DNA from: Candidatus Woykebacteria bacterium
GTDB taxonomy: Bacteria; Patescibacteriota; Microgenomatia; Woykebacterales; RBG-16-39-9b
Assembly (NCBI GenBank): GCA_040876345.1
Contig: JBBDPM010000001.1
Location: 33,619 to 97,618 of the forward strand
Direction of reading: 5' to 3'
DNA length: 64,000 nucleotides
This document shows positions 31,934-54,625 of the stretch, in pieces (position 1 is the stretch's first letter; each line of letters begins with the position of its first letter). The position numbers and the translations under genes were made by a program. The notes beneath the pieces were generated by a model. It did no database searches. It saw only the letters and a program-made list of their open reading frames with translations, and was not told the DNA's origin.

Positions 31934-31936
31934 CGA

Positions 31937-37655: not shown

Positions 37656-37730
37656 CGGGGTGTAGTTCATTGGTAGAACGCGGGGCTGGGGGTCCTGATG
37701 CAGGAGGTTCGATTCCTCTCACCCCGACCA
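37656..37730 (+). tRNA. tRNA-Pro (anticodon GGG), CCA encoded
   Basis: hand fold: 7-bp acceptor CGGGGTG/CACCCCG, D-arm GTTC/GAAC, anticodon loop CTGGGGG, T-arm GGAGG-TTCGATT-CCTCT, discriminator A, CCA. Confidence 0.85.
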
Positions 37731-37800
37731 AGGCTATTGATTTCGGAACGTCTTCAAACCCTCAGGAGAATCGAACCTCAAAACGAACTTGACAAAAGTT
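37727..37800 (+). repeat. repeat copy 1 (3' module only, fused to tRNA-Pro 3' end)
   Basis: CCGACCAAGGCTATTGATTTCGGAAC...GAGAATCGAACCTC aligns with 3' half of other copies. Confidence 0.6.
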
Positions 37801-37826
37801 TGAGCGATAGTTAATCTTTAAATAGA

Positions 37827-38150
37827 GTGAGACGCCTACTTATCTACACCGTCTTTTTAGTAATTGCAGTCGTTATTACAGTTGCCACAACAGTTCTTCA
37901 ATCAAGACCATATCCTACACAACAAATACCAGACGCAGATTTTCTATATGTCTCTGGTTACCCATTACATTACTTAATTACTGGCTTTGCTGGGTTTGAA
38001 GAAAAACTTCAGTTCCCCAACCCAAATTTTGCTTGGAAAACTGAAATACTTTGGGGTCATTTGGCTATAGACATTCTTTTCTGGTTCCTAATAATAGTTA
38101 TGCTAGCCAAAGCTTGGGACTTGGTGAAACAGAGCGAAAAGAAATCCTAA
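37827..38150 (+). CDS. hypothetical membrane protein (GTG start)
   Basis: 107 aa, 3 TM. Confidence 0.45.
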   Translation: MRRLLIYTVFLVIAVVITVATTVLQSRPYPTQQIPDADFLYVSGYPLHYLITGFAGFEEKLQFPNPNFAWKTEILWGHLAIDILFWFLIIVMLAKAWDLVKQSEKKS

Positions 38151-38164
38151 CCTGCAAAGTTTAA

Positions 38165-38305
38165 AAATCTCCCTAAATTTGTAATACTAAAATCAAATGA
38201 GTTCATCTGAATCCAGAGGTTCCTGATATCGTCCAACAAGGCCGACCAATATTTTTGAACCTAACACACCCTTTGACCCTAAAATTCAATCGAACTTAAC
38301 CCGGC
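38165..38305 (+). repeat. repeat copy 2
   Basis: ...GAGTTCATCTGAATCCAGAGGTTCCTGATATCGTCCAACAAGGCCGACCAAT + 3' module. Confidence 0.7.
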
Positions 38306-39221
38306 CAAACTTTCAGGTTTTCAGCGTAATCTTTCATTGCTTTTTCAATTGTGAATTCTGGAAAATAATTAAGCTCTGCCTCAGCCTTTGATATATCAAG
38401 TGGGGTGGTTCGTACGGACTGAACTCTTTCTTCACCTAAATCTATGTCAGTTAACTTAACCTCTATGTTAAAGAGGTTCTTCGCACTACGAGCAATGTCT
38501 TCATAAGAAGTTAGTGTCCCAGCACCAACGTTAAAATTTTTTTTTTAATACTTGAACTAGTCACCGCATTTATTATTGCCACTGCTAAGTCTTTCACGTA
38601 AAGTTGCTCACTTTTTTCTGCAAACGGTACTGCCATTTCAAACTCTTTTCCTTCTATTCCAGCTTTTACAATATCGCGGATAATCTCGTTAAAAGTGGAA
38701 GCAGAACCAAGCCAAGGGCCGTAAACTGAAGTTAAACGTAAAATAACTGCTTTGTCGTAAGGTGTTATAAGTTTTTCTGCTTTTAGTTTTGTCTGTGCAT
38801 ATAAAGTTTTTGGTTCTAAGTGAGTTTCTTCCGTAATTGAGGTAGCTGACTCCAAAGCAGTGCCATAAATTGAGTCTGAACTTGTGTAAACTAAAGGAAT
38901 ATTCGCTTGAGAAGATACTTCGACGACTAATTTCGTCCCTTCGACATTAACCAAACTACCTCGAACAGGGTCTGCTTTTACTGCTCTTTGTCTCAGTGCT
39001 GCCGTATGAACAATAACATCAGGAACAAAATCTTTAACTGCTTTTTCAAAATCTTTTTTGTCGGTTATATCTCCAACAATAACTTTATAACTATTCCAAA
39101 CACTTTTAATAGACTTTTCATCAGGATTTACTTCAAAAAGAATTGGAGAAAATCCTTGTTTTTCCGCTTCTAACGCTGAATAAGTTCCGGCTAAACCGCC
39201 ACCGGTAATTAGTACCTTCAT
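38296..39221 (-). pseudogene. NAD-dependent epimerase/dehydratase (UDP-glucose 4-epimerase-like) interrupted by a 1-nt frameshift in a T10/A10 homopolymer (38537-38546)
   Basis: ORF 38511..39221 (MKVLITGGG...) stops at ...IKKKILTLVLGH*; the C-terminal third (NFNVGAGTLTSYEDIA...KAEAELNYFP...) continues in the +1 frame to 38296; 11 As would restore the frame. Confidence 0.6.
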
Positions 39222-39258
39222 AGCTGTCATTCTAACAGCTTTGTTGTAATATAAAAAA

Positions 39259-40284
39259 GTGAACAAAGCATTTATCTATGGAGCAAGAACCTTAGAAAAA
39301 TATACTGATAGAATATTGGTAAAAGGTTTAAAGAATAATTCTTGGGAAATTTCAGAAGAAGCAGAAAATATCGTTTATCAAATCCACGGAGCACCTCAGT
39401 CAGAGGAAGACGACAAGTTAATTCTTGATAATATTAAGCGAAATATTGTTAAAAACGATTCAACCAAGAGAATTATTCTTGTCCACCGTCCCGATGAAAT
39501 ACAACTTCGATTTCCAGAATTAAAAGATATTTTACAAACAGCTCAGAAACCAATCGGACTCACTTTTTTGGGAGATATGCATGTTAATGACAGTTTCTTT
39601 GGTGCTGAAAACCTAATAAAAAGAGTTATTCCCCACGGGTTTTTCGCAATTTCAGAAAAATTACAAATAGAACCATTAGTCGTCGGCAGTCACACTACTT
39701 GGGGAGAAATGCGATCTATCGAGCACATTTTTAAACTTCTAGTCGAAGTGTTCAGGAAAAATAGTTCTATCATCGGTTATGTTGGTGGTAAACCAAAAGA
39801 CCAATTAGAAGAAGGTTACCTAAAAACTGAATGGGCAAAATTAAACCCCAATGTTCAAGCAACATTCTTTGATGCCCATAAAGATAACTTCGACCTATCG
39901 AAGAAAAATGTAATTTTTGTTGATTCAGACAATGTTGAGCCCGAAAACTTTGGTTTATCGTTTAATGTCCAGATGTATTACTTGAATGACTCAGTAAGAA
40001 CTGGGGAAAGTTCAGGTTCTGTTCATTCTAGTGTTGGTGTACCAGTTATTCTGGAAATGAATGGTTCTGAAATTATCGAAGATGTGAAAGTAATAAAAGT
40101 CCCTTACAGTTCAAAAGAAGATATACACTCGATTGATTTTAAAGCTGGAGCAGACTTGATACTTAAATCGATTGAAGATAGTAGTTATCAGGAAATGCTA
40201 AAACACAATTTAGAGCAATCCAAGAAATTTAATTCTACTTTTGTTGGTAGTGAGTACGTTAAATTGTTTCAAGAGTTGGGTTAA
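39259..40284 (+). CDS. hypothetical protein (GTG start)
   Basis: 341-aa ORF. Confidence 0.45.
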   Translation: MNKAFIYGARTLEKYTDRILVKGLKNNSWEISEEAENIVYQIHGAPQSEEDDKLILDNIKRNIVKNDSTKRIILVHRPDEIQLRFPELKDILQTAQKPIGLTFLGDMHVNDSFFGAENLIKRVIPHGFFAISEKLQIEPLVVGSHTTWGEMRSIEHIFKLLVEVFRKNSSIIGYVGGKPKDQLEEGYLKTEWAKLNPNVQATFFDAHKDNFDLSKKNVIFVDSDNVEPENFGLSFNVQMYYLNDSVRTGESSGSVHSSVGVPVILEMNGSEIIEDVKVIKVPYSSKEDIHSIDFKAGADLILKSIEDSSYQEMLKHNLEQSKKFNSTFVGSEYVKLFQELG

Positions 40285-40286
40285 AA

Positions 40287-40437
40287 AACCTAGTTAAGTT
40301 TGTTGAGCTAAAGTTGAAGGAGTTTATCTGAGGCCAGAGGTTCCTGATATCGCCTGCCACGCATAGTTTCAACGAAGTGTGGTCCAACAAGGCCGACCAA
40401 TGTTTTTTGAACCTAAAATTTTATCGGGCCTCTGAGG
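40287..40437 (+). repeat. repeat copy 3, with 30-bp insertion (40353-40382) inside 5' module
   Basis: TGAGGCCAGAGGTTCCTGATATCG[ins]TCCAACAAGGCCGACCAAT...GGGCCTCTGAGGC. Confidence 0.7.
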
Positions 40438-40443
40438 CAAAAG

Positions 40444-40923
40444 TTATGCGTCTTTGAGATTTTCTAAAACTTTTTTAACATCTCCGGTAATCATTACCCA
40501 ATTTTCTATTTCTTCAAACCCAAGCTTTTGGTACCATTTTAATGGGTGTTCGTGTACCCGATGAGTATAAGTATCCCAAGTCACTACTCCATATTTTTCT
40601 TGAGCTTCGGTAAAGAGCTGTTTTATTAACTTCTTTCCCAAGCCTAAATGTTGATAACTCGGATGAATAAATAACTCCCCTTCAATTAAGTGATTGCCAT
40701 CCCACCAAGGGCGAACGCTTGCAACGATTGCTCCTACTGCTTTTCCGTCTACTTCCAAAACAAAAAATAAATCAGACTGGTCTTCAAACATATATTTCAT
40801 TAACTCTAAAGCACTAGAAACATCCCAAGTCTCACCAATATCAATAGAGTTATAAGCTTCTATATAAACTTGGGCTAAAGTTTTTAGGTCTTCTTCTTTT
40901 GCTAGTCTAAAATTAGTATTCAT
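40444..40923 (-). CDS. GNAT-family N-acetyltransferase
   Basis: acetyl-CoA-binding motif region QHLGLGKKLI; start MNTNF at second ATG of promoter module. Confidence 0.75.
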   Translation of the reverse strand: MNTNFRLAKEEDLKTLAQVYIEAYNSIDIGETWDVSSALELMKYMFEDQSDLFFVLEVDGKAVGAIVASVRPWWDGNHLIEGELFIHPSYQHLGLGKKLIKQLFTEAQEKYGVVTWDTYTHRVHEHPLKWYQKLGFEEIENWVMITGDVKKVLENLKDA

Positions 40924-41006
40924 AGCTGCCATTCTAGCACTTTTTTGAGAGCTAGATCAAAAAAAGTGCTGCGCAAGCTAAGCATTTTTGGTGTAAGATA
41001 CAACCA

Positions 41007-41297
41007 ATGATAATTCATATTGCTTTATTTAAATTTAAGCCGGAAGTTTCAAAAGAAGAAGCTGATGATGCGCTAAATGAAGTTAGAGATTTAAAGATTA
41101 AGATTCCACAAATAATTGAAATCTATACCGGAGAAAATTTCTCCAAACACTCAAAAGGTTTCACCCATGCCATAGTCGTAAAATTCAACTCGGGGGAAGA
41201 TATAGATGCTTACAGGGCTCATCCAGCACATAAACCAATCGCTGATAAATTAGATTCGATGGAAGAGGACTCTATCGGAATAGATTTTGAAGTATGA
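41007..41297 (+). CDS. Dabb (stress-responsive dimeric alpha+beta barrel) protein
   Basis: 96 aa; IIHIALFKFKPE...AHPAH. Confidence 0.65.
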   Translation: MIIHIALFKFKPEVSKEEADDALNEVRDLKIKIPQIIEIYTGENFSKHSKGFTHAIVVKFNSGEDIDAYRAHPAHKPIADKLDSMEEDSIGIDFEV

Positions 41298-41833
41298 AAA
41301 TAATGCTACTTGGTAGTTTACCAAAAGGCGACGAGGCGAGAAGAAGTTTCATTGATTGGAAAAAAGATTACGAAGAGAAAATACTCAAAGAAATTCCTGA
41401 TGCTCAAATAGTTCATGGGGATTTAATAAGTGACAAAGAAGGGCCAGAAATTGTTGTTGGCCACGATTTGTGGCTCGTTAAGCACTCTGATGTAATAATT
41501 GTTGATGCAAGAGCCAAAATAGGGGCGGGGACTGCTCAAGAGATGGTTCTAGCAAAATACTTTAAGAAAGCTGTAATTTCAATCCTTCCTAAGAACACTC
41601 ACCACCGCCGTTCAAACGTCATCTTCCATGGAGAAACAGTTGAGGACTGGATTCATCCATTCCTCTATATTTGTTCAGATTTTATTTCTGAAACAATAGA
41701 GGAAGCTATCAAACGGATAAAGGGCTCCTCAGGCAAAAACGTTAAAGATTTTTCCGTCTTCGAGAAAGAGATTAAAACTTTTGAAACTAAACTTCCCGAC
41801 GTTGTAAAAGAATACTTGAAAAGAGGCTGGTAA
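41294..41833 (+). CDS. nucleoside 2-deoxyribosyltransferase-like fold protein
   Basis: 179 aa; SDVIIVDARAKIGAGTAQEMVLAKYFKKAVISI pattern. Confidence 0.45.
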   Translation: MKIMLLGSLPKGDEARRSFIDWKKDYEEKILKEIPDAQIVHGDLISDKEGPEIVVGHDLWLVKHSDVIIVDARAKIGAGTAQEMVLAKYFKKAVISILPKNTHHRRSNVIFHGETVEDWIHPFLYICSDFISETIEEAIKRIKGSSGKNVKDFSVFEKEIKTFETKLPDVVKEYLKRGW

Positions 41834-41839
41834 GCTCTT

Positions 41840-42340
41840 ATGAAATATCAAGAGAAAAAATATCGAGTAGATTCGTTTACTAAAATTTGGAGAATATTAG
41901 AAGAAGCAGGTGCGAAAAAGAAATCAAAAGTCCTTTCAACTCACTATTATGCACAACAAGAAGGCAATAACATTATAAAACTTGTCCAATACGAAAACAA
42001 AAACGAAATACATCTACTCCAAGAGTCACAAGGTAAATATTCTCTAAAGGAAAAAATCCCTGTAGAAACCACCGATGCTGGCCTAAAACGGCTTAAAGAC
42101 GAAGGCTATAAGGCAGTTGAGGTTGTAAAAATGGTTAATACTGATTACGAATATAAAGGCGGAATTGTAGGACTTTACCTAATAAACAACTTTCTTCATT
42201 CGGTAATTCTAGATTTTCCAGAAGGTCACCACGAAACGCTAGAAAAGGAATTTGGTTTAGAGACTGCAGAAGTCATTAGTGTTCCCTATAATAAATACCT
42301 TGAGCAGATTGGCAAACTCCAATCAATAAAACTAAAGTAA
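41840..42340 (+). CDS. hypothetical protein (possible CYTH-like)
   Basis: 166 aa; N-terminal YQEKKYRV resembles CYTH ExExK start; weak. Confidence 0.35.
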   Translation: MKYQEKKYRVDSFTKIWRILEEAGAKKKSKVLSTHYYAQQEGNNIIKLVQYENKNEIHLLQESQGKYSLKEKIPVETTDAGLKRLKDEGYKAVEVVKMVNTDYEYKGGIVGLYLINNFLHSVILDFPEGHHETLEKEFGLETAEVISVPYNKYLEQIGKLQSIKLK

Positions 42341-42364
42341 TACTTTAGTGGTAAAATCCAAGCT

Positions 42365-42697
42365 ATGATTTCTGACGTATTAGCAGTTTACAAGTTTTTA
42401 AAGGAGACCGTAGAGGATATTACAGTGATAGAAGCTTTATTCTCTTATGATGGTATCCTGGTGGAAGGGGATGAAGTTATAAAAATAAGACTGCACGGCA
42501 CTCCTGGTCAAGATAGAGTTTGGTTTTATGAGGTTTTACCCTATGAAGATTACATTTTTGTTCCTTTTCCTGTAAACCCCGCAGTCTATGTCGATTATGG
42601 TAAACAGAACGGTAAAGAAAACCCCAATGCAAAGTTTTTTTTAGGTATGTTGCTAGCCCGCTATCTAAATATTCGCAAGGTGGAGAGGAAAACGTAG
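42365..42697 (+). CDS. hypothetical protein
   Basis: 110-aa ORF. Confidence 0.4.
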   Translation: MISDVLAVYKFLKETVEDITVIEALFSYDGILVEGDEVIKIRLHGTPGQDRVWFYEVLPYEDYIFVPFPVNPAVYVDYGKQNGKENPNAKFFLGMLLARYLNIRKVERKT

Positions 42698-42775
42698 AAT
42701 TAGATTTTATAGTTTTTGGATACAAGCCTACTGATTTGATAAAAGCACGTAAAAATAAGGGCTAAGCCGCTTGGA

Positions 42776-42927
42776 AGAACCTGCTTAAGTTCGTAAGACT
42801 AAAGTCAAAAGAGTTAATTTGAGGCCAGAGGTTCCTTAAATCGTCCAATAAGGCCGACCAATGAAGTTCGTGCCTGAGTTACTATATCTTAACGTATCAG
42901 GGCTGGTGTGTTATCGAACCTCTGAGG
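42776..42927 (+). repeat. repeat copy 4
   Basis: TTGAGGCCAGAGGTTCCTTAAATCGTCCAATAAGGCCGACCAAT...CGAACCTCTGAGGC. Confidence 0.7.
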
Positions 42928-43410
42928 CTAAGTTTTACTGGACGATTGTTTTAGTAGCTTAGGCCAATTTTCAATAACTTCTTCAAGTTTGTCATACTCG
43001 TAGTAAACTACTTCACCACTTTCAATTAGCCCGCGAACAATTTTTCCAATTCTCCTATCAAACTTCTTCCCCTTTATAATTATTATTGGTGTATAAGGTA
43101 AACCCATCCTAGGTTTGTCAATGGCACGTTGAATTACCATTGACCGACCTTCGCTTGGTGCGGATATTTCAGCAAGTAGAAGGTCAGATTCATCAATCCA
43201 TTTTATGTGAACTTCTCTTTGTTCCCTAAACGTAGGCTTTCTGTTCAATCCCAATTCCTTCTGTAGAAATAAATCTGGGTCGGTTGCAAATACGTATTCG
43301 GCTCGGTAAAGTTTGTGACCTTCGTCTTGTAGGAAAGTCATTAGCTTCCTTAGGTTTACATCAGATTCGCCACCACTAACCTCTGGGTCAACACTGAAAT
43401 ATATCTTCAT
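42928..43410 (-). CDS. nucleoside 2-deoxyribosyltransferase-like fold protein (paralog of 41294..41833)
   Basis: start MKIYFSVDPE at second ATG of promoter module; SDLLLAEISAPSEGRSMVIQRAI pattern. Confidence 0.5.
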   Translation of the reverse strand: MKIYFSVDPEVSGGESDVNLRKLMTFLQDEGHKLYRAEYVFATDPDLFLQKELGLNRKPTFREQREVHIKWIDESDLLLAEISAPSEGRSMVIQRAIDKPRMGLPYTPIIIIKGKKFDRRIGKIVRGLIESGEVVYYEYDKLEEVIENWPKLLKQSSSKT

Positions 43411-43523
43411 AGATGCCATTCTAGCATTTTTGGTGTAAAATTCGAACTGATAAAAATATAGTAAAATAAATAAAGGGTCTGTAGTTCCACAGACACCTGA
43501 ACCTATATTAGTTACACAAAAAG

Positions 43524-44666
43524 ATGGAAAAGTTGAGAAATAAACTCGGAAATAAAGTAATTTTTGGAATTGTAGCAATCATAATTTTGCTTGCCCTTTC
43601 GTTTGTTTTCGGCCGTATTTTTACTAAAGAAGCAATAAATCCTTCTCATACAACTAATACAAAAACGGAAAATTGCACTAATCCTGTGTTCACCGAGTAT
43701 TTCGTTGATCCAAAATTCGTGCAAAAGGTTGGGCAAGTTGGAGTGGTTCATGGTTCTGGACTCTATATTGTAGAGCGTTCGTATGTAAGCGTAAAAAATG
43801 AATTTACCGGACAGAAAGTGCCGGTGTATGCCCCAGTTAATATGACGGTTCTCTCCGGCAGCCATTATATCAATCCCGCAGCTTCCAGCACTGCCTTGCC
43901 AGATTGGGCTCTTTGGTTTGACGCTGGCTGCAATGTGGAAGTAAATCTTGCCCATCTTAAGGAAGTTGTAGATCCAATTGCGGTGCAGCTGCCTGAAGCA
44001 AAAAAAGATAGCAGAAGCACCCAACTAAAACCTCAGCAATTCAAAGCGGGGGATCTTATCGGATACTTCATTTATAACCAGGGAGATGTTGCCGGTTTTG
44101 ATTTCATCGTCAGAGATAAAAAGGTGGTTAATCAATTTATCAATCAGGAGAGATATTCTGGCAATAGAGCGTCAAACTTGATTAACGGTGTCTGCCCTTA
44201 TGATTATTACGAATCTAGAAAAAAAGAAACCTACTACAATTTGCTCGGAGGAGGCGGGGGAACCCTGTTTAAGGTCAAAGACTGCGGCAAGTCTTCGAGG
44301 GATGTGGCGGGAACTATTTCAGGGATGTGGTTTTTGGACAAAGAACCGCAGGAAAATATATATGACAGTTATAAAGATGGGCATTACGGTAGTACCTTAT
44401 CTATTGTTGGAGACGAAGAAAGAGTCACCATAGGCAATTTGGGCACGAGCAATGTCTCCTGGACCCTCAGCAAAAATCCAACCTACAAACTCCCGGAAGA
44501 AGTCGCAAACCAACACTGCTACCAGTTAGACGTATTCACACCTGGGGAAACTAGTGGGTGGGTGTATTTAAAGCTCATTTCTGAAGTTGAACTTGATGTG
44601 GTGTTTTCGCAAACAGGAACTTGCCCGTCTGCATTTCCTGGAAACGCAAAGAGATATTATAAGTAG
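43524..44666 (+). CDS. hypothetical secreted/membrane-anchored protein
   Basis: 380 aa; N-terminal signal anchor; GGGGG tract. Confidence 0.45.
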   Translation: MEKLRNKLGNKVIFGIVAIIILLALSFVFGRIFTKEAINPSHTTNTKTENCTNPVFTEYFVDPKFVQKVGQVGVVHGSGLYIVERSYVSVKNEFTGQKVPVYAPVNMTVLSGSHYINPAASSTALPDWALWFDAGCNVEVNLAHLKEVVDPIAVQLPEAKKDSRSTQLKPQQFKAGDLIGYFIYNQGDVAGFDFIVRDKKVVNQFINQERYSGNRASNLINGVCPYDYYESRKKETYYNLLGGGGGTLFKVKDCGKSSRDVAGTISGMWFLDKEPQENIYDSYKDGHYGSTLSIVGDEERVTIGNLGTSNVSWTLSKNPTYKLPEEVANQHCYQLDVFTPGETSGWVYLKLISEVELDVVFSQTGTCPSAFPGNAKRYYK

Positions 44667-44723
44667 GCAACTAAAATCCGGTTTTTAGCCAGCCTTCTAA
44701 AGAGCGATACTAAACTGTAAGAA

Positions 44724-46745: not shown

Positions 46746-48122
46746 ATGCCTAAATTAGTTTCAACAAATCCCGCTAAAAACTATGAGCTTGTTGGAGAAG
46801 TAAGTGTTTCGACTGCTTCTGAAATAGCAGAGAATGTAAAAAAGGCTCAAGCTACAAAAGAAGCTTGGAAAGAACTGGGCGTTAAAAAACGAGTCGAGTT
46901 GATGAAACCAATAGTCGAGGAGTTTGAAGGACGCCAAGGGGAGGTTGCTCAGATAATAACCAAGGAGGTAGGAAAGCCAATACGGCAGAGTCGTGATGAA
47001 GTTAGAGGTTACATAGGAGATTTTAAGTGGTTTATAGAAAACGTTGAATCTTCTCTCGCTGAGCAAGTAACTTTTGAAGACGAAAAATCATTACATAAGA
47101 TGGTTCATGAACCAAGTGGCGTTGCTGCCGTAATCACACCATGGAATTTTCCCTTTGGCATGGCCGTTTGGGGAATCGTCCCAAATTTATTAGTTGGTAA
47201 TACTGTTGTTTTCAAGACTTCTGAGGAGTGCCCTTTACTTGGAAAGGTAGTTGAAGAAATTTTTCTAAACCATGATTTGCCTGATGGGGTTTTTGCTGAG
47301 GTGTATGGTAACGGGAACGTTGGCGAACAATTGGCCAAGAGTGATATCAATCTAATTTGGTTCACTGGTAGCTCAAAAACAGGTGGATTCTTGTACAAAA
47401 TCGCTGCCGATAAGTTTGTAAAAGTGATTTTGGAAATGGGCGGTTCCAACCCTGGTATTGTTTTTGAGGATGTAGATATAGAAAAGGCAGCAAATATTAT
47501 GGCTGATGCGAGGCTTCTTAATTGTGGTCAAGACTGCTCTGCTGTTAAAAGACTCCTTGTTGAAGAATCAATTTACAAGGAATTCATTCCTCATCTCAAA
47601 AAGACATTTAAGTCAAAAGTTATTGGTAGCCCAGATGATGAAAAAACTGATGTAGGTAGTCTGGTGGCCAAGAGGCAGTTGGAATTATTAGAGGGTCAAG
47701 TTAACGACTCTTTAGATAAAGGAGCGAAAATAGTTTATCAGGCTAAACTTCCAAAAAATCTAAAGGGTGCCTTTTATCCCCTCACAATTTTAAACAACAT
47801 CGATAAGGACATGAGAGTTTGGAGAGAAGAAGTTTTTGGACCAGTTCTTTCTGTGGTTCCATTCAAAACCGAGGAAGAAGCTGTGGAATTTGCTAATGAT
47901 ACTATCTATGGCTTGGGTAGCAGAATAATTTCTAATGATAAAGAAAAAATAGACAGAGTTGCATCGAAAATTGAAGCAGGAACAGTTGAGGTTAATAAAG
48001 GCGACCGATGGCTTCTCTGCAATCCTTATGGCGGTTATAAAAATTCGGGAATGGGTATTGAACATGGAACCAGAGGTTTTCAAGAGCTTTGCAGGGTGAA
48101 AATTATTGCTTACTCGAAATAG
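46746..48122 (+). CDS. NAD(P)-dependent aldehyde dehydrogenase
   Basis: start MPKLVSTNP 6 nt after TGTATAAT; motifs LEMGGSNP, catalytic LLNCGQDCSAV. Confidence 0.85.
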   Translation: MPKLVSTNPAKNYELVGEVSVSTASEIAENVKKAQATKEAWKELGVKKRVELMKPIVEEFEGRQGEVAQIITKEVGKPIRQSRDEVRGYIGDFKWFIENVESSLAEQVTFEDEKSLHKMVHEPSGVAAVITPWNFPFGMAVWGIVPNLLVGNTVVFKTSEECPLLGKVVEEIFLNHDLPDGVFAEVYGNGNVGEQLAKSDINLIWFTGSSKTGGFLYKIAADKFVKVILEMGGSNPGIVFEDVDIEKAANIMADARLLNCGQDCSAVKRLLVEESIYKEFIPHLKKTFKSKVIGSPDDEKTDVGSLVAKRQLELLEGQVNDSLDKGAKIVYQAKLPKNLKGAFYPLTILNNIDKDMRVWREEVFGPVLSVVPFKTEEEAVEFANDTIYGLGSRIISNDKEKIDRVASKIEAGTVEVNKGDRWLLCNPYGGYKNSGMGIEHGTRGFQELCRVKIIAYSK

Positions 48123-48142
48123 GAGTAGTTTAAGATTCAAAT

Positions 48143-49075
48143 ATGAAAATTGTAATCACGGACAGAATTAATTTTCCTGCTGATACTATGGATAGGTTAA
48201 GGAAAGTTCCAGGAATAGAGATTTATGACGATGTGCCTGATAAGGAAATGGTGATCGAAAGAATCAAAGACGCGGATGTTGCAACCGCTTGGTACGTGGA
48301 TATTACTCGAGAAATAATTGAAGCGACGAATATACTTAAATATATTATTGTGCCTGCCGTTGCTACTGATTGGGTTGACAAGGAAGCCGCAAAGGAAAAA
48401 GGTATAAAAGTCCTGAACTGCCCTACCTTTAATTCTCAAGCAGTTGCCGAACACGCTATCGCCTTGATGTTTGCGGTAAAGAGGCAAATTGTGGCCGCGA
48501 ACTTGCAGATTTTGAATGGTGGGTTCAACTCAAAAAACTTTGAAGGAACTGAGGTCAAAGAAAAAACTCTAGTTACTTTCGGATACGGCAATATTGGTAA
48601 AAAGGTTATTGAAATGGCCAAGGGGTTGGGAATGGAAACAGGCTATATAAACACAAAAACAAGTGAGCAAGAAGCCGAACAACTACTCAAAAAAGCAGAC
48701 GTTTTGGTGATGTGCTTATCTCTAAGCGAAAAGTCTAAGGAAATCTTAAACTCTGAAAGACTTTCCCTGCTAAAAACTTCTGCGGTAGTTATCAACGTGG
48801 CAAGAGGGTTGGTGATAGAACAAGACGCTTTTTATAAAGCACTAACTGAAGGAGAACTAGCAGGGGCGGGAATTGATACTTTCCCAAATGACGAAACCAC
48901 TACCACTGATGGTAAAACACCCGAGCACATCCTCAAGTTTGCCAAACTTCCCAATGTTGTAGCTACTCCTCATATGGGTTTTAAGACAAAAGAATCTATG
49001 GAAAGGCTTGGAGATGAACTAATTAAGAATATTGAAAGCTGCATTAAAGGCAATCCCACCAATGTAGTTAATTAG
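48143..49075 (+). CDS. D-isomer-specific 2-hydroxyacid dehydrogenase family protein
   Basis: 310 aa; GYGNIGKKV NAD-binding; catalytic R...E...H (VVATPHMGF). Confidence 0.8.
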   Translation: MKIVITDRINFPADTMDRLRKVPGIEIYDDVPDKEMVIERIKDADVATAWYVDITREIIEATNILKYIIVPAVATDWVDKEAAKEKGIKVLNCPTFNSQAVAEHAIALMFAVKRQIVAANLQILNGGFNSKNFEGTEVKEKTLVTFGYGNIGKKVIEMAKGLGMETGYINTKTSEQEAEQLLKKADVLVMCLSLSEKSKEILNSERLSLLKTSAVVINVARGLVIEQDAFYKALTEGELAGAGIDTFPNDETTTTDGKTPEHILKFAKLPNVVATPHMGFKTKESMERLGDELIKNIESCIKGNPTNVVN

Positions 49076-49107
49076 TTAAGATTGCTATATCAGGCTATAA
49101 TTAGTCT

Positions 49108-49650
49108 ATGACCTTTCTTAAAGTAATACGGCTTGGACATCCTAAATTGAGATCTAAATCAAAACAAGTAAGTAAAAAGGAACTGTCTTCAAAAACTTTT
49201 CAGAAGTTTTTGGACGATTTAGCCGAAACTTGTTTGAAATATAACGGGGCTGGAATAGCAGCCCCGCAGGTTGGGGTAAATAAAAGAGTAATTGTAGTTC
49301 ATGTAGATCCAAAGAACCCCCGTTATCCAAATAAGAAACCGTTTCCCCTTTCCATAGTCATTAACCCAAAAATAGTTAAACGCTCATCTAAAATAACTGA
49401 TGATTGGGAAGGAGATCTGTCCGCTGGTATTATAGGTCTTGTGCCAAGACCGAATGCCTGCACTGTGGTAGGACTTGATAGAAAAGGTAAAGAGGTAACT
49501 TTCAAACTCACTTATGGTTTCCATGCGAAAGTTTTTCAACACGAGATCGATCATTTAAACGGTGTTTTCTTTATTGATAGGGTTAAAAAGAACAACACAA
49601 TCAGTGAGTTGGCAGAATGGGAGAAATATTGGAAGGACAAGAAGATTTAG
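49108..49650 (+). CDS. def: peptide deformylase homolog with Cys-to-Asp substitution in motif II (EGDLS)
   Basis: 180 aa; motif I GAGIAAPQVGV, motif III HEIDHLNG, motif II reads WEGDLSAG. Confidence 0.75.
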   Translation: MTFLKVIRLGHPKLRSKSKQVSKKELSSKTFQKFLDDLAETCLKYNGAGIAAPQVGVNKRVIVVHVDPKNPRYPNKKPFPLSIVINPKIVKRSSKITDDWEGDLSAGIIGLVPRPNACTVVGLDRKGKEVTFKLTYGFHAKVFQHEIDHLNGVFFIDRVKKNNTISELAEWEKYWKDKKI

Positions 49651-49838
49651 TTAGGATAATAATAAACTGCGGTTCCTTTTCTTTCTTTTCTCACTAAACC
49701 TCTTTTAATGAGAGTATCTCGGAAACTGGCAGTATGAGGTTTACCCAATACACGATTTAATTCAGAAGGTCTGATTCCTGGATTATTTTTAATGATTAAA
49801 AGCATTTCCTCCAAAAACTTTTCCCTAAAGCTTTTCAT
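49647..49838 (-). CDS. small winged-helix DNA-binding protein
   Basis: start MKSFREKF at second ATG of promoter module; helix-turn-helix pattern. Confidence 0.45.
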   Translation of the reverse strand: MKSFREKFLEEMLLIIKNNPGIRPSELNRVLGKPHTASFRDTLIKRGLVRKERKGTAVYYYPN

Positions 49839-49877
49839 AGCTGCCATTCTAGCATTTTTGGTGTAAGATACAAACAT

Positions 49878-50417
49878 ATGAAACGTGGTCCGTTTAAAAT
49901 AAAAAGTTCTAAGCTCATTTATAAAAACGATTGGATAGAAGTACGAGAAGATGAAATCATTCGACCTAACGGGAAAGAAGGTGTTTTTGGCATTGTGGAA
50001 GGGGCTTCTGGCTCATCGATTGTCGCTTTGACCAAGGATAATGAAGTTTACCTCACCGAAGAATATCGCTACGCTCAAGATAAAATTACATACGAACTGC
50101 CAAGCGGTGCGATAGATAAGGGGGAGACACCTCTTGATTCGGCAAAAAGAGAACTGAAGGAGGAAACTGGTCTGACTGCAAATAAATGGGCTGATTTGGG
50201 TTATATAAATCCACTTACCGTTATCCTTAAGTCTCTGAACTATATGTTTCTTGCAGAGCAACTAAGGGAAGGTGAGGCTGAAGATGAGGAAAGCGACTTA
50301 ATCGAACTTAAAAAGGTTTCTTTAATTAAGTGTTTAGAAATGATTGAGAAGGGCCAGATAACTCATGCAGCTAGCGTGGTCGCTATACTAAAAGTTGCAA
50401 AATTAAAGGAATTATAA
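49878..50417 (+). CDS. NUDIX hydrolase (ADP-ribose pyrophosphatase-like)
   Basis: Nudix box GAIDKGETPLDSAKRELKEETGL. Confidence 0.8.
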   Translation: MKRGPFKIKSSKLIYKNDWIEVREDEIIRPNGKEGVFGIVEGASGSSIVALTKDNEVYLTEEYRYAQDKITYELPSGAIDKGETPLDSAKRELKEETGLTANKWADLGYINPLTVILKSLNYMFLAEQLREGEAEDEESDLIELKKVSLIKCLEMIEKGQITHAASVVAILKVAKLKEL

Positions 50418-50440
50418 AGTCATACAATTTAGAAATCTAC

Positions 50441-50530
50441 CGAGGTTAGCTAAACTAAAGTCGAACGAATTTAGTGTAGGCCAGAGGTTCCGAATATCGT
50501 CCAACAAGGCCAACCATTGCGTCTAACACG
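50441..50530 (+). repeat. repeat copy 7 (degenerate 3' part)
   Basis: GTGTAGGCCAGAGGTTCCGAATATCGTCCAACAAGGCCAACCATTG. Confidence 0.6.
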
Positions 50531-50604
50531 ACCATTGACAAATAAAGTTTACAAGTTTACAATGTAAGAAGTTTGAAAATTAAACACAATGTTAGGAGTA
50601 TACA

Positions 50605-50886
50605 ATGGAAAATAAAAATCAAGAAAAATGGGTAAAAATACTTGGTAAAGGAATGCTGACTCTTCCTAAAGAATGGAGGGATGAGGCAGGTATTGATACC
50701 GGTGATGTCGTCAAGGCAAAAAAGGAAAGAAATAAGATCGTTATCGAATTAAAAGATCAAACCAAGAAAGTTCCCTATCGTACTTACACCGACTCTGAAC
50801 TAGATGAATTTTTAAAAGAAGATAAGCTTCCTAAAAGCCTTTCCGAAAGAATCGATAGGTTTTTGTCCACCGCCAAAAATAAATGA
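50605..50886 (+). CDS. AbrB/MazE/SpoVT-family antitoxin
   Basis: 93 aa; swapped-hairpin motif GKGMLTLPKEWRDEAGIDTGDVV. Confidence 0.7.
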   Translation: MENKNQEKWVKILGKGMLTLPKEWRDEAGIDTGDVVKAKKERNKIVIELKDQTKKVPYRTYTDSELDEFLKEDKLPKSLSERIDRFLSTAKNK

Positions 50887-51314
50887 GGGTATTTTTTGAT
50901 GCCTCAGTAATCATCGCCGCTTTCCTCTCCCCGGCCGGTGGCTCAGCAAAAACTCTTAAACTTATTAAATCGGGACTGATAAGGGGTGTTACTTCTCAGA
51001 CTGTTATAGAAGAAGCATTGGAAGAAAAGCACCTGCTCAAAATAAAAAGTTCCAAGCAGGATTTAGAAGGGTTTATTGCTAGCAGTGGTTTAATTGTACG
51101 AAGCCAAATCACTCCAGACGAAATTACTCCTTATCAAAACTTAATCGACCCAGATGATGCACATCTTATCGCAGGAGCAAATTTGACAAAGTGTACCCAT
51201 CTCGTAACTCTAGATAAGAAGCATTTACTCCGAGCAGATATAAAAGAAAAATTCTCACCACTTCGCATCGTTTCACCAAAAGAGCTCTTAGAAGATGGGG
51301 TTAGAAGTAACTAA
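50883..51314 (+). CDS. PIN-domain toxin (VapC-like)
   Basis: 143 aa; VFFDASVIIAAF with conserved acidic residues; ATGA-coupled to antitoxin. Confidence 0.7.
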   Translation: MRVFFDASVIIAAFLSPAGGSAKTLKLIKSGLIRGVTSQTVIEEALEEKHLLKIKSSKQDLEGFIASSGLIVRSQITPDEITPYQNLIDPDDAHLIAGANLTKCTHLVTLDKKHLLRADIKEKFSPLRIVSPKELLEDGVRSN

Positions 51315-51351
51315 CGACACTTCTAGCATTTTTTGAGTAGGATACAAAGTT

Positions 51352-52035
51352 ATGAAGAAACCTTCTTTAAATTATGACGCAGGGATCATTCTTGGCGGAG
51401 GTCGTTACGATGAAAATATTTTGACACCATTAAGTAAGATGCGTCTGGATAAGGGGTGGGAACTTTATAATCAAGGTATCATTCCTAAGATTATTTTACC
51501 AGGCTCTAATTATGGTACTTACATTCCAAAGGCAACAAAGTTTGAAAAGACCACCGCTAAATTACGGAAAGAGTATTTGTTAGCTAAAGGAAGTGTAAAG
51601 GACGAAGCTATTATCTTAGCTGAAGAAGGAAGAGATACGATTTATGAGGCATTTGCAGTCCGTAAGAAAGCAAAGGAGCTTGGATTGAAGAATCTCCTAC
51701 TTATTACTTCCGAGCGTCACATGCCTAGAGCCTTTTTTATTTTCAAAAGTATATTCGGTAGTGATTTAAAAGTATACACAAATAAACTGAGTGAGGTTGT
51801 TACTGGGAATATTCTAATAGGTGATGAAGAAAAGGAATATTTATCCTTGGTTAAAGAGCTGTTTAGTTCTATGCCAGAAACTATCCCCCAACCTGATAGT
51901 TGGGAGAATTGGTACTCTGAACATTTAGATTTTTATAGTAACTACAAAAGGATTCATGATAGGTTTCACCCACCGGGAAAAGAATCCCAAGCCTATACTC
52001 TCGGGGCAAAAAAGATTAAACTCATACAACTATGA
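51352..52035 (+). CDS. DUF218/YdcF (SanA-ElyC-like) family protein
   Basis: 227 aa; IILGGG...ITSERHMPRA. Confidence 0.6.
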   Translation: MKKPSLNYDAGIILGGGRYDENILTPLSKMRLDKGWELYNQGIIPKIILPGSNYGTYIPKATKFEKTTAKLRKEYLLAKGSVKDEAIILAEEGRDTIYEAFAVRKKAKELGLKNLLLITSERHMPRAFFIFKSIFGSDLKVYTNKLSEVVTGNILIGDEEKEYLSLVKELFSSMPETIPQPDSWENWYSEHLDFYSNYKRIHDRFHPPGKESQAYTLGAKKIKLIQL

Positions 52036-52583
52036 AAATACCAAAGGAAGCAAAAAGAGTCTTCGAAGGGATTATTTTTGATGTTTATCACTGGAAACAG
52101 AAAATGTTTGATGGTAGTACTACAACCTTTGAAGCTTTAAAAAGACCCGATACTATACAAATAATTCCTGTCTTTGATGGAAAGATTCTACTTTCTTATG
52201 AAGAACAGCCAAACCGACCAGCCACTTATACTTTTTTAGGTGGGCGGCAAGAAAAAGATGAAGACCAATTAGTTACAGCCAAAAGAGAATTACTCGAAGA
52301 AACTGGTTTGGAATCAGATGATTGGGAATTGTTCAAAGTTTACGACGTTGAGGCCAAGATTGAATGGCAAATTTACTTATTTATTGCAAGGAATTGTAAA
52401 AAGACTACTGAACCTTCGCTAGATGCAGGTGAAAAGATTGAGGTAAAAGCAGTAGATTTTGAAGAATTCTTGAACCTCGCCGCCCAAGAAACTTTTTGGG
52501 GAACAGAAATAGCTAATGATATTTTTCGAATGAAAGAGAACAAGGCTAAGTTGGAGGAGTTTAGTAAAAAGCTACTTGGTTAA
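52032..52583 (+). CDS. NUDIX hydrolase
   Basis: Nudix box LGGRQEKDEDQLVTAKRELLEETGL. Confidence 0.8.
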   Translation: MKIPKEAKRVFEGIIFDVYHWKQKMFDGSTTTFEALKRPDTIQIIPVFDGKILLSYEEQPNRPATYTFLGGRQEKDEDQLVTAKRELLEETGLESDDWELFKVYDVEAKIEWQIYLFIARNCKKTTEPSLDAGEKIEVKAVDFEEFLNLAAQETFWGTEIANDIFRMKENKAKLEEFSKKLLG

Positions 52584-52585
52584 AG

Positions 52586-52722
52586 AACCTGTTTAAGTTG
52601 TTAGGACTGAAATCGAAGGAATTCAAAGTTGGCCAGAGGTTCCTTAAATCGTCCAACAAGGCCGACCAATGTATTTGAATTCCGAACTTCTCTGAACCCT
52701 GAGTAGAATCGAACTTCAGAAG
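52586..52722 (+). repeat. repeat copy 8 (near-consensus), followed by T-rich tract
   Basis: TTGGCCAGAGGTTCCTTAAATCGTCCAACAAGGCCGACCAATGTATTTGAATTCCGAACTTCTCTGAACCCTGAGTAGAATCGAACTTCAGAAGC. Confidence 0.75.
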
Positions 52723-52730
52723 CTATTTTT

Positions 52731-53072
52731 TTATTTGAAAGTGTTTTGAATTGAATTTTCCATAAGTATGTTTGCATACACACCTACTAGATAGAAAATG
52801 AGGAACGGTCCAATTAAAAGAGCCAAACTAACAATTAATCCGTAACCAACCTTTACTCCTTGCTTTGACTTTCCTTTCAGAAAAAACCAAAACCACCAAC
52901 TAACAAATGCAAAAAGTAAAAACATAATTACTGGCCAGTATTGTGTTAAAGGGTTTGGCTTATTAATTTCCAAATCAGAATAAAGCGTGTTTATCCGAGA
53001 GGAGATAAAAAGATAAAATAAAATAGCTAACGTGTTTACAATTGCTGCAATCAAAGTGACGATAGAAGCCAT
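52731..53072 (-). CDS. hypothetical membrane protein (3-4 TM)
   Basis: 113-aa hydrophobic ORF. Confidence 0.45.
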   Translation of the reverse strand: MASIVTLIAAIVNTLAILFYLFISSRINTLYSDLEINKPNPLTQYWPVIMFLLFAFVSWWFWFFLKGKSKQGVKVGYGLIVSLALLIGPFLIFYLVGVYANILMENSIQNTFK

Positions 53073-53104
53073 TAACTAAATCATAGCAAAGAAACTTCAA
53101 AAAA

Positions 53105-53255
53105 GCGATTTAGGTTCTGAAGACTAAAATCAAAAGAGTTTAAGGAAGGCCAGAGGTTCCTGTAGTTCGAAAGAACGCAAGATTATAGCTAAGCTAATCT
53201 TTAATCGCTTGCCCTCGCGAAGCCTCGGCGAAGCAGGGTCCAACAAGGCCGACCA
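53105..53255 (+). repeat. repeat copy 9, with 75-bp insertion (53163-53237) at same site as copy 3; lacks 3' module
   Basis: GGCCAGAGGTTCCTG[ins]GTCCAACAAGGCCGACCAG. Confidence 0.6.
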
Positions 53256-53308
53256 GCTCACGTCGCCACACTTGACACGGCCAATTTATATGTTATGCTG
53301 TATACAGC

Positions 53309-53575
53309 ATGAAAAGAACTCAAGTTTACTTCTCAGAAGCAACGATAGAAATTATTAAACGGGAGGCCAAAGAGAATAACACTACGATGGCCGCGGTCAT
53401 ACGCGAGAAAGTAGAAAAAGAGACAAAGAAACCAGCCGAAAAAGGGATAAATGACGCGCTAAAAGCAGTAAAAGAAATCTCCAATCTTAGGTTGCCTACT
53501 ATGCACCCTGCCAAAATGAAGGAGATCCTCGCCGAATCCCACGGAAGGACCTATGACATATTATCTGGACGCTAA
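53309..53575 (+). CDS. ribbon-helix-helix (CopG/VapB-like) antitoxin
   Basis: 88 aa; RTQVYFSEATIEIIKREA N-terminal RHH. Confidence 0.65.
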   Translation: MKRTQVYFSEATIEIIKREAKENNTTMAAVIREKVEKETKKPAEKGINDALKAVKEISNLRLPTMHPAKMKEILAESHGRTYDILSGR

Positions 53576-53969
53576 TATTTTTATTTACGCAAGCAATCCT
53601 GACGATCCCAATTTTGAAACTTGCTCAAGTATCTTAAAAAGAGTTGGTTTAAGAGAAATTAAGGCCGTAACTTCAACTGAGACGATTCAGGAGATTATTT
53701 TCTACTCTCAAAAATTTAAAAATGTAAAGGCAGGAATTGCAATTGCAAGCGGAGCGTTAAAAATCGCCCATCAAATTCTGTCTATTGATCTTAATGTAAC
53801 CCACAGGTATTTAGATCTGGTAGCCTTATACCCAAATATTGACAGCCGGGACAATCTACATACCGCAACTTGTCTGGTTAATAATATAGACACTATAGTC
53901 TCCGCTGATAAATCACTAGACAAAATCAAAGAAATAAAACGGGTGGATCCGAAGATTTTTATTCCTTAA
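53553..53969 (+). CDS. PIN-domain toxin (VapC-like)
   Basis: 138 aa; YYLDANIFIYA start; 23-bp overlap with antitoxin. Confidence 0.7.
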   Translation: MTYYLDANIFIYASNPDDPNFETCSSILKRVGLREIKAVTSTETIQEIIFYSQKFKNVKAGIAIASGALKIAHQILSIDLNVTHRYLDLVALYPNIDSRDNLHTATCLVNNIDTIVSADKSLDKIKEIKRVDPKIFIP

Positions 53970-54000
53970 AACACACATAAACTAACGGGGTGAATAGATT

Positions 54001-54435
54001 ATGAAAAATACCACCAAAAAAACCGCGGCTGGCAAGACATTCACGGACGAGGAACGAGCCGCGATGAAGGAGCGTATCCAAGAGCTGAGGGCGGACAAAA
54101 CGGACGGGGAAAGCGACGTGCTCGCAAAGATCGCCGAGATGCCGGAACCGGATCGCGCCATGGGCAAGCGGCTCCATGCTATCATCAAAGCCAGCGCGCC
54201 AGAACTCTTGCCGAAAACCTGGTACGGGATGCCCGCCTATGCCAACAAGGATGGCAAGGTTGTCTGCTTCTTCCAAAGCGCGCACAAGTTCAAATACAGA
54301 TACGCGACATTCGGCTTCAACGACGCGGCGAACCTAGACGAAGGCCACATGTGGCCGACCTCCTTCGCGCTGAAGGAGTTGACTGCCGCCGAAGAGGCAA
54401 AGATCGGCGCCCTCGTGAAGAAAGCGGTGAGCTGA
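54001..54435 (+). CDS. DUF1801 (YdhG-like) domain protein, GC-rich (foreign composition)
   Basis: 144 aa; local GC ~58%; YdhG-like pattern. Confidence 0.6.
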
Positions 54436-54535
54436 GAACTGAGCGTGCCACTGGGCCCCGCCAACTGTCTGATGAAGAAATGATGTCAACTACAGGTAGG
54501 TTTAAACTTTCAGACCATACTAAATTGTAGAATAG

Positions 54536-54625
54536 AATCTGTTTAGGTCAGTAAAACTGAAATCTAAAGAGTTCATCTGAGGCCAGAGGTTCCTAATACC
54601 GTCTAACAAGGCCGACCAACAAAGG
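54536..54625 (+). repeat. repeat copy 10 (5' module only)
   Basis: GAGTTCATCTGAGGCCAGAGGTTCCTAATACCGTCTAACAAGGCCGACCAAC. Confidence 0.65.

Follow-up and report, generated by a model that had tools for sequence, protein, structure and literature searches.

A Tandem Array of Recombinase-Less Gene Cassettes at a Woykebacterial tRNA-Pro Gene, Probably Laid Down by Serine Recombinases with attP inside Their Own Gene

The window analysed here is a stretch of 64,000 nucleotides (64 kb) from a Candidatus Woykebacteria genome (contig JBBDPM010000001.1), and its subject is an array of nine gene cassettes that starts at the 3' end of a tRNA-Pro(GGG) gene and is punctuated by copies of one direct repeat. 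We propose that the array was probably built up in tandem by integrative elements belonging to a family of large serine recombinase (LSR); these elements target tRNA-Pro 3' ends and carry attP inside the 3' end of the LSR gene itself. Judged by its sequence, the repeat is the detached end of such a gene, that is, its last ~30 codons, together with the P half-site of the enzyme and the core.

The Repeat Array Begins at the 3' End of tRNA-Pro

ARAGORN and Rfam agree that tRNA-Pro(GGG) is the only tRNA gene in the window. Its final bases (37724-37730) read CCGACCA, and alignment places the same 7-nt core at every repeat. Nine copies lie 3' of the tRNA, all on the plus strand, plus one half copy joined to the tRNA 3' end, much as the original prediction on this DNA had it (about ten co-oriented direct copies, the first a 3' half fused to the tRNA). 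The P side of the repeat reads GGCCAGAGGTTCC...GTCCAACAAGGCCGACCA, with the core written GGCCGACCAA; the final 18 nt, GTCCAACAAGGCCGACCA, end at the right-hand coordinates of the nine copies in Table 1, and the number of matches of this type expected in shuffled sequence is 0. The prediction was right about the repeat family and its strand, but the proposed length of ~150 bp did not hold: the constant unit is a ~85-nt 5' arm plus the core, because the 3' half is kept only after the tRNA and copies 1, 2 (partly), 3, 5, and 7, and the sequence 3' of copies 4, 6, 8, and 9 is unrelated to it by alignment.

The ~60 nt that follow the tRNA (37731-37790), which make up the half copy, are 77% identical to the P' arm behind copy 7. 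With the LSR protein P0016 as tblastn query (P numbers are used here for proteins and L numbers for related loci), LQKYRKNENWSGREESN was aligned to window positions 37757-37659. The half copy appears to preserve, in decayed form, the final ~15 codons of an LSR gene that ran antisense into the tRNA, and the P' arm behind copy 7 (52669-52730) likewise reads as what is left of an LSR 3' end. The proximal junction is attL-like and has the tRNA-Pro(GGG) 3' end as its B side. The geometry of the whole, tRNA-core-P' ... P-core-P' ... P-core-flank, supports what looks like serial site-specific insertion at the tRNA-Pro 3' end, and the repeats lie downstream of tRNA-Pro(GGG), co-oriented, in 10/10 related loci that include the tRNA; on both counts the accretion at a tRNA attB that had been suggested at the outset found support.

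Several copies carry hairpin insertions of 30-70 nt that separate the outer from the inner P half-site. They occur in copies 2 and 8 of the window (Table 1), in L001 at ~680-710, and in L002, L005, L007, and L016. Their stems covary (CCACGC/GTGTGG, CTACGC/GTGTAG, CCGCGC/GTGCGG, and CCCTGC/GCAGGG), and in copy 2 and L005 the insertion is in frame with the coding tail described below. A small palindromic insert and a functional structure are both candidates for what they are.

The Repeat Carries a Coding Tail and a Constrained, Putative Half-Site

On the minus strand, a reading frame begins at the core with TGG TCG GCC (the reverse complement of GGCCGACCA) and ends at the sharp 5' edge of the repeat. 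Its consensus is WSALLDD[IL]RNLWPx[LIM]NSFDFSxxNLxRF[FL], followed by a stop a few codons later. The frame is open from the core in 17/17 distinct uninterrupted copies; stops interrupt one plus-strand frame in 10 of these 17 and the other four frames in 15-17. Variation between the copies has a three-base period, and in the outer tail the entropy at codon positions 1/2/3 is 0.78/0.61/1.37. The outer tail thus behaves as coding sequence. The inner 38 nt are near-invariant, third positions included (0.14/0.08/0.30), which points to a further constraint on the DNA itself, as would be expected of a recombinase half-site.

Three other accounts of the repeat were considered and dropped. A plus-strand peptide (KNLFKF..LKSKEFI-stop), also taken from the period-three signal, meets stops in 10/17 copies, against none in the minus-strand frame. 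The tail could have belonged to the following cassette, as the C-terminal end of whichever minus-strand gene comes first in it, but those genes vary between cassettes; one of them, at 52731-53072, ends 62 nt short of the core and in a different frame. A Xer/dif module was set aside since the invariant 38 nt hold no dif-like 11-6-11 palindrome, as judged by inspection only.

The Tail Probably Belongs to a Serine Recombinase That Integrates Antisense into tRNA-Pro

A profile of the tail peptide was searched against 5.8 billion proteins and recovered only seven short predicted open reading frames (ORFs) of 42-84 aa, three of them from more distant genomes. L025 is one of these three; there, a 525-aa LSR with Resolvase, Recombinase, and Zn_ribbon_recom domains has a copy of the tail 5.3 kb upstream of it. 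This tail copy has diverged; the C-terminus of the LSR itself, ...ENQDWQAWMRSKWFLNGLKF..., resembles the tail, ...LQGWMDDIRNAWLNLNSFDF..., and the DNA core CAGGnnTGGATG is common to both, which suggests an attP located within the 3' end of the gene for the LSR.

Because the antisense tRNA 3' end reads TGG TCG GGG TGA, an LSR integrated there is predicted to have the C-terminus ...W-S-G-stop. P0017 and P0018 do end ...NENWSG, within a family pattern ...N(E/G)NWSG, and in P0014-16, P0019, and P0022 the frame continues through the antisense tRNA (WSGREESNLRY...). The ORF of P0017, at 9018-10505 of L018, converges on tRNA-Pro(GGG) c[10494,10568]; P0018 adjoins tRNA-Pro(CGG) in L027, and P0014 adjoins tRNA-Pro(TGG) in L031. 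All three proteins carry PF00239, PF07508, and PF13408 together with the N-terminal motif YYRVSSREQ. A W[QS]G-type junction motif near the C-terminus was found in 33 of 53 family members, 21 of which show read-through of the antisense T-loop.

When the L018 LSR is joined at the core to the tail repeat at 2027, 8.5 kb away, a single in-frame ORF of 527 aa results, which ends ...KHRQNENWSALLDDIRNLWPQLNSFDFSIANLNRFFNISRLV-stop. The 8.5-kb element spans the distance from the tRNA core (10494) to the tail repeat (2027) and has direct repeats of the core at both ends. The LSR ORF runs across the core into the antisense tRNA and regains its frame with the detached tail, as is the case where attP lies inside an integrase gene. 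Short native tails of the form WQAWMEDIR... are carried by P0012, P0031, and the L025 LSR. Remnants of LSR 3' ends, 15-30 codons long, stand beside cores not only at 37731-37790 and 52669-52730 of the window but also at L005 58-147 and in L006; the one in L005 keeps 30 LSR codons.

The original prediction had noted the lack of a recombinase in cis, and we agree: Pfam and phmmer searches with XerD, IntI1, and gamma-delta resolvase gave none among the window ORFs of at least 100 codons, although the same phmmer queries missed the L018 LSR, which surfaced only through the L025 lead. By tblastn no recombinase was found inside the nine cassettes beyond the short LSR 3'-end remnants. The mechanism had been left as mobilisation in trans or by unknown means; an LSR clade that integrates antisense into tRNA-Pro 3' ends, as found in the related array L018, replaces the unknown.

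The genome of the window itself seems to hold such an enzyme. The NCBI protein accessions of the window RecA and of P0018 lie 322-722 apart in each of three assemblies named Candidatus Woykebacteria bacterium, and both proteins occur in the Logan sample SRR27977662. From the accession proximity and the common sample we infer that the same ~1-Mb genome encodes P0018 at tRNA-Pro(CGG). P0018 is 77% identical to the L018 LSR, and the 3' ends of the tRNA-Pro(GGG) and tRNA-Pro(CGG) genes differ by one T-loop base.

Some further observations on the LSR clade were made. A small DUF5659 gene stands just upstream of the LSR in three independent loci (L018 8000-8242, L025 14725-14952, and L027 9290-9541), and its product is a candidate recombination directionality factor or regulator. 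Public annotations of the clade (P0015, P0016, P0019, P0022, and many more) often extend the ORF through the antisense tRNA, ...WSGREESNLRYRTPSA...; these read-through C-termini are artefactual, yet they reveal the integration target. The intact L018 element carries a gene for a 1035-aa DUF4365 protein (3386-6493) and one for a weakly HEPN-like protein (2099-2713), cargo that looks defence-related, and no phage structural, replication, or conjugation domains were detected in the six ORFs of the element that were run through Pfam.

The Repeat and Its Cassettes Recur in Related Arrays

Outside the window, the repeat was found in one further species genome, a 915-kb chromosome (OZ246414.1) met in a scan of a genome collection, and in 16 metagenome contigs. 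Individual cassettes recur as well, as the original prediction had proposed to check. Between the CopC cassette (window 44919-46240) and L012 4917-3592 there is a match at 83% whose end falls exactly at the core. DUF1801 cassettes are present in five arrays, and those with DUF1801 and 2-hydroxyacid dehydrogenase have opposite relative order in the window and in L012. These comparisons show cassettes that are modular, common to different genomes, and reordered between them. Within the 64-kb window, the repeat has no copies outside the accessory region.

Two deletion variants, at 96 in L001 and at 1746 in L007, keep exactly the inner ~17 nt plus the core. Since some copies are reduced to this extent, the minimal functional P half-site is suggested to be ~20 nt.

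The chromosome OZ246414.1 (L001/L002, 248001-264000) shares with the Woykebacteria window both the repeat and the tRNA-Pro/recA/RNase Y neighbourhood, and its record label, "uncultured Gammaproteobacteria bacterium", is probably wrong.

Proposed Mechanism

In the model that we favour, the LSR ORF of the free circular element would read ...NENW-SALLDDIRNLWPQLNSFDFS..NLNRF-stop. The intragenic attP would recombine with the tRNA 3' end, the crossover falling within TGGTCGG, the reverse complement of the tRNA CCGACCA. Integration would fuse the body of the LSR gene to the antisense tRNA, giving an ORF that ends ...NENWSG-stop, and would leave the final ~30 codons, together with the P half-site, at the opposite end of the element; the repeats of the window would each be such a tail with its P half-site and core. 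New elements would enter at the tRNA-proximal junction and push the older ones outward. In L018 the only LSR-bearing unit is the one adjacent to the tRNA, with an LSR-less cassette next to it, which fits entry at that junction. The nine cassettes of the window would be LSR-less derivatives, either leftovers of deletion or units propagated as non-autonomous cassettes and, if they still move, they may be mobilised in trans by the LSR at tRNA-Pro(CGG) of the same genome.

Several points weigh against this model. The profile search of 5.8 billion proteins and scans of viral contigs yielded neither a free or circular form nor an LSR with the full long tail; in the viral contigs the repeat pattern gave two matches (one inside a phage gene, one in a contig of 66% GC), which we read as chance, and the LSR search gave zero relatives. 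In L027 and L031, the 10 kb upstream of the LSR contain no tail repeat. The resident LSR, P0018, is without a tail, and its assignment to the genome draws on accession proximity and a common sample rather than on a closed assembly. The P' sides are heterogeneous, with a clear if partial dyad (GTCCAACAA ... TTTTTGAAC) at some junctions only, set against a P side invariant over ~38 nt. Exact look-ups of two cassette proteins returned only the arrangement of the window itself, and with no alternative context for these two, nothing points to ongoing turnover of cassettes. Finally, canonical LSRs to our knowledge recombine only attP x attB, and for elements to insert repeatedly where the tRNA junction is already taken, or at P-core-P' sites within the array, would need relaxed site use, of hybrid or attP-like kind. 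The use of hybrid or attP-like sites has been reported for Ccr recombinases.

A bolder version of the same model can be put forward tentatively, and we think it rather unlikely. Patescibacteria may possess an integron-like gene-capture platform driven by a serine recombinase, in which LSR-less cassettes of 0.5-4 kb with gene-derived sites of ~20-85 bp would be cut out, reshuffled, and integrated in trans at tRNA-Pro. The ~30-aa tail, by coming off and being joined again, could then act as a built-in switch of directionality or activity, being lost beside the tRNA and regained when the tail of another cassette lies downstream. Such a platform would parallel, in bacteria and with a serine recombinase, the logic of the suicidal integrases of archaea. 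Present-day mobility of the cassettes is unproven; that the same cassettes stand in different array contexts is indirect evidence of mobilisation.

Alternative Explanations

The alternative that survives best, which we hold to be possible though somewhat unlikely, is that of a fossil array: complete LSR elements would have integrated serially, each would have been reduced by deletion, and what is left would be inert relics with no mobilisation in trans today. The LSR 3'-end remnants beside some cores are what such a history would leave, the sites of the distal minus-oriented block described below have decayed, and both the tailless resident LSR and the two cassette proteins seen only in the arrangement of the window agree with it. 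Gradual decay fits less well with the state of the LSR genes, which across the ~35 junctions of L001-L018 are either complete (L018) or reduced to remnants of at most 30 codons, with no intermediate pseudogene. Nor would relics be expected to keep the inner 38 nt invariant while their tails diverged to 60-80% identity, to end their deletions so as to spare exactly the inner ~17 nt and the core (L001 at 96, L007 at 1746), or to vary in cassette order between genomes.

The minus-strand micro-ORF might instead encode a small protein expressed in its own right, such as a regulator or a recombination directionality factor. It is at times predicted by gene-calling programs, and its frame is open in all uninterrupted copies. 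It has no conserved start codon, however (L010 has TTA TTA, against TTG TTG in the other copies), and stops lie 2-18 codons upstream of the W of the tail. The frame seamlessly continues the LSR ORF in L018 and aligns with the C-termini of P0012, P0031, and the L025 LSR, and we therefore judge an independent protein improbable.

The original prediction had considered a tRNA-derived 5' half, as in a short interspersed element (SINE) or miniature inverted-repeat transposable element (MITE), and a structured RNA or terminator marking the cassette boundaries belongs to the same group of explanations. The resemblance on which they build is that the repeat ends in GACCA like a mature tRNA and has the strings TCCTGAT and GGTTC in common with tRNA-Pro. 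Beyond 7 nt and scattered bases there is no identity to the tRNA, and the 5' half is accounted for, sharp edge included, by a minus-strand LSR tail plus P half-site. The check by Rfam and folding that had been called for spoke against a structured element: with Rfam at gathering thresholds over the whole window, and with ARAGORN, only the genuine tRNA was detected, and neither a cloverleaf nor a stable, conserved fold was predicted for the repeat. All copies in the 64-kb window sit at one locus, none of them outside the accessory region. We regard this explanation as very improbable.

The array might also be taken for a chromosomal integron, or for an attC cluster without an integron integrase (CALIN), in which the tRNA would serve as attI and an IntI-type tyrosine recombinase would act on the repeats as folded, single-stranded attC sites. 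This is scarcely credible despite the superficial likeness of co-oriented repeats at cassette 3' ends, a toxin-antitoxin (TA)/GNAT/NUDIX cargo as is typical in sedentary integrons, and no integrase nearby: single-stranded DNA folds of both strands gave z-scores of -2.2 to +1.5 and mutually inconsistent structures, the consensus fold has six pairs, -3.65 kcal/mol, and zero covariation, so that the repeat is not attC-like, its conservation is one of primary sequence with a codon signature, many cassettes are multi-gene with genes in both orientations, phmmer with IntI1 and XerD found no match in the window or in L001-L022, and the associated enzyme is a serine recombinase.

Comparison with Known Systems

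The original prediction knew of no comparable system; close conceptual precedents do exist in SSV-type integrases, staphylococcal cassette chromosome mec (SCCmec) composites, and the accretion of cis-mobilizable elements (CIMEs). Our searches of the literature turned up no account of arrays like these, or of an LSR arranged in this way, from Patescibacteria.

The SSV-type ("suicidal", type I) integrases of archaeal viruses and plasmids are associated with gene capture at tRNA genes (She et al. 2001, cited in PMC7253208). These integrases target a tRNA gene and have attP within their own ORF, and integration splits the integrase gene so that its fragments flank the element; tandem integration would rebuild an intact gene, and captured elements pile up beside tRNAs (PMC7253208). 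The same source describes the attP-in-integrase arrangement, for tyrosine integrases, as limited to archaea up to now and reports no tandem arrays of elements with suicidal integrases (PMC7253208). The system of the window shares the attP in the integrase ORF, the tRNA target, and the splitting of the gene by integration. It differs in that an LSR of Patescibacteria takes the place of archaeal tyrosine recombinases and, since the Pfam domains are those of serine recombinases, it is an analogue of the SSV type and not a member. It differs also in that no more than the final ~30 codons come off and the catalytic part remains intact, so that integration need not be suicidal, and in the arraying of up to nine integrase-less units in the window.

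In staphylococci, the LSRs CcrAB and CcrC insert SCCmec and pseudo-SCC elements at the 3' end of rlmH (orfX). SCCmec composites form tandem arrays in which several units lack a recombinase, are bounded by direct repeats that contain the integration-site sequence, and are mobilised in trans or in cis with a neighbour. Both systems thus have, at a conserved gene's 3' end, tandem units that lack a recombinase and are delimited by att repeats. In the window, however, the target is a tRNA and not a protein-coding gene, the repeat is ~85 nt long and derived from the integrase gene and not from the target gene, and the units are far smaller (0.5-4.3 kb).

CIMEs, and the accretion of integrative and conjugative or integrative and mobilizable elements at tRNA and other att sites in streptococci, provide units that keep att and have lost the recombination module. 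The nine cassettes, bounded by sites of LSR elements and free of recombinase genes, are CIME-like in this sense: they are non-autonomous units that keep the att of a related element and show tandem site-specific accretion. The streptococcal elements use tyrosine (or other) integrases and separate att sites, usually come as one or two units, and leave the integrase gene unsplit. With integrons and CALINs the array has in common its anchor and polarity, small cassettes, co-oriented sites, TA/GNAT/NUDIX cargo, and an apparent anchor-proximal entry; it differs in the lack of IntI and of folded attC, in sites conserved as double-stranded, gene-derived sequence, in multi-gene cassettes with promoter-like motifs of their own, and in the serine recombinase associated with it. 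Mycobacteriophages of clusters G, N, and P have attP inside the repressor gene, which makes immunity dependent on integration. There, too, attP lies in the 3' part of a gene and integration alters the C-terminus of the encoded protein, but the gene affected is that of the repressor and not of the integrase, the integrase is a tyrosine enzyme, and no arrays are formed.

The enzyme class is already known, and the tandem accretion of tRNA-targeted integrative elements is already known in kind. What is noteworthy is the LSR with attP in its own 3' end and the unusually long, integron-like string of small LSR-less cassettes in a genome of the candidate phyla radiation (CPR). The array illustrates how streamlined, small CPR genomes can keep a dedicated hotspot for foreign genes, here of 17-27 kb, and it delimits a clade of LSRs whose target is easy to predict: the 3' end of tRNA-Pro and, to go by the C-termini, of other tRNAs. 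The detached tail is a simple signature by which further arrays may be found and LSR ORFs that run through antisense tRNAs corrected. If the cassettes can be mobilised in trans, they would represent a second, mechanistically independent route to integron-like arrays and a source of tRNA-targeting serine integrases with short, defined sites.

Cassettes and Their Cargo

The coordinates of the features are collected in Table 1. The cassettes range from 0.5 to 4.3 kb, carry genes in both orientations, and in many cases hold more than one gene. By Pfam their cargo includes an epimerase, GNAT, Dabb, CopC/cupredoxin, RidA, ALDH, 2-hydroxyacid dehydrogenase, def, NUDIX (twice), MazE/PIN (twice), DUF218, and DUF1801; most of the cargo first listed from the sequence was recovered in this way, as were the two gene directions, and an "NDT-like" gene was not. 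Against ~42% GC in the core flanks (1-27300 and 55400-64000), the cassettes have 36-41%, apart from the final one, which reaches 45% because its DUF1801 gene is of 57.5% GC.

Table 1: Positions of the tRNA gene, repeat copies, cassettes, and degenerate sites in the window.
Feature	Position	Strand	Remarks
tRNA-Pro(GGG)	37656..37730	+	ARAGORN; Rfam RF00005, 58 bits (gathering score, 29)
P' arm of cassette 1 (half copy)	37731..37790	-	minus strand reads ...RFDSPEGLKTFRNQ-stop-PWSG-stop
Repeat copy 1	38150..38248	+	minus-strand tail frame WSALLDDIRNLWIQMNSFDFSITNLGRFLNFAG-stop
Repeat copy 2	40262..40399	+	30-nt hairpin insertion 40353-40382, in frame with the minus-strand tail (...LLDHTSLKLCVAGDIRNLWP...)
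Repeat copy 3	42765..42860	+	tail WSALLDDLRNLWPQINSFDFSLTNLSRFFQAA-stop
Repeat copy 4	44713..44805	+	
Repeat copy 5	46145..46240	+	
Repeat copy 6	50415..50516	+	core variant GGCCAACCA
Repeat copy 7	52564..52668	+	followed by type-A P' arm 52669-52730, minus strand KFDSTQGSEKFGIQIH, then W
Repeat copy 8	53084..53255	+	~70-nt insertion (about 53163-53237); tail frame shifted
Repeat copy 9 (final)	54523..54618	+	unrelated flank beyond
Nine cassettes, total	37731..54618		
Cassette 1	37731..38248		
Cassette 2	38249..40399		
Cassette 3	40400..42860		
Cassette 4	42861..44805		
Cassette 5	44806..46240		
Cassette 6	46241..50516		
Cassette 7	50517..52668		
Cassette 8	52669..53255		
Cassette 9	53256..54618		
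Degenerate site GGGGTTCCTCAAATCGTCCAAAAGGATTGGCCAAAG	37267..37301	-	just upstream of the tRNA; nhmmer E=0.0055
RelE/antitoxin cassette	31614..32248	-	degenerate sites 32220-32248 (TTCCAAAAGGTCGACCA) and 31614-31649 (hairpin + GGTCTAACAAGGCCCGCCA)
Weak degenerate site TTCCAGCAAGGCCAGCCA	29052..29078	-	nhmmer E=3

The DUF1801 gene (54001-54435) stands out with its 57.5% GC in a window of 41% GC. Its homologues in the L001, L005, and L012 arrays have 86-93% nucleotide identity to it, and the one in L009 has 69%. This gives evidence of a gene that was apparently acquired from a high-GC donor and then spread among arrays.

An Accessory Block Upstream of the tRNA

The region of the window at 27.3-37.5 kb, upstream of the tRNA, is also accessory and has degenerate sites on the minus strand (Table 1). 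Its genes (27300-37500) encode an epimerase, DUF5674, HIT, PNPOx, TerC, a RelE TA pair, PhnB-like, RibD_C, glyoxalase, and DUF1801 proteins, and, as judged from their sequences, ArsR and two SRPBCC-like products. Homologues of the RelE/antitoxin cassette lie inside the arrays of L005, L007, and L015, and the segment 37319-37544 matches L012 415-644, which is distal to the L012 array. The minus-oriented block is probably an older, distal part of the same array, of which the weak site at 29052-29078 is a possible outer limit.

Compared with L001, L004, and L010-L012, in which recA is divergent and immediately upstream of the tRNA, the window has its tRNA and plus-strand array (37656-54618) turned round between two shared flanks (37319-37544 and 55611-58050), and hence inverted relative to the DUF7544/recA flank, with breakpoints that do not coincide with the cores of the sites.

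A promoter-like motif, CATTCTAGCATTTTTGGTGTAA, was noticed on both sides of the tRNA, at 43417-43438 and 49845-49866 on the plus strand and at 29086-29107 and 37551-37572 on the minus strand, with weaker versions at 39217 and 51308. Within the window it is confined to the accessory region, sometimes overlaps the start of a small divergent gene, and is present too in L001 at ~1480-1510; its orientation follows that of the local array.

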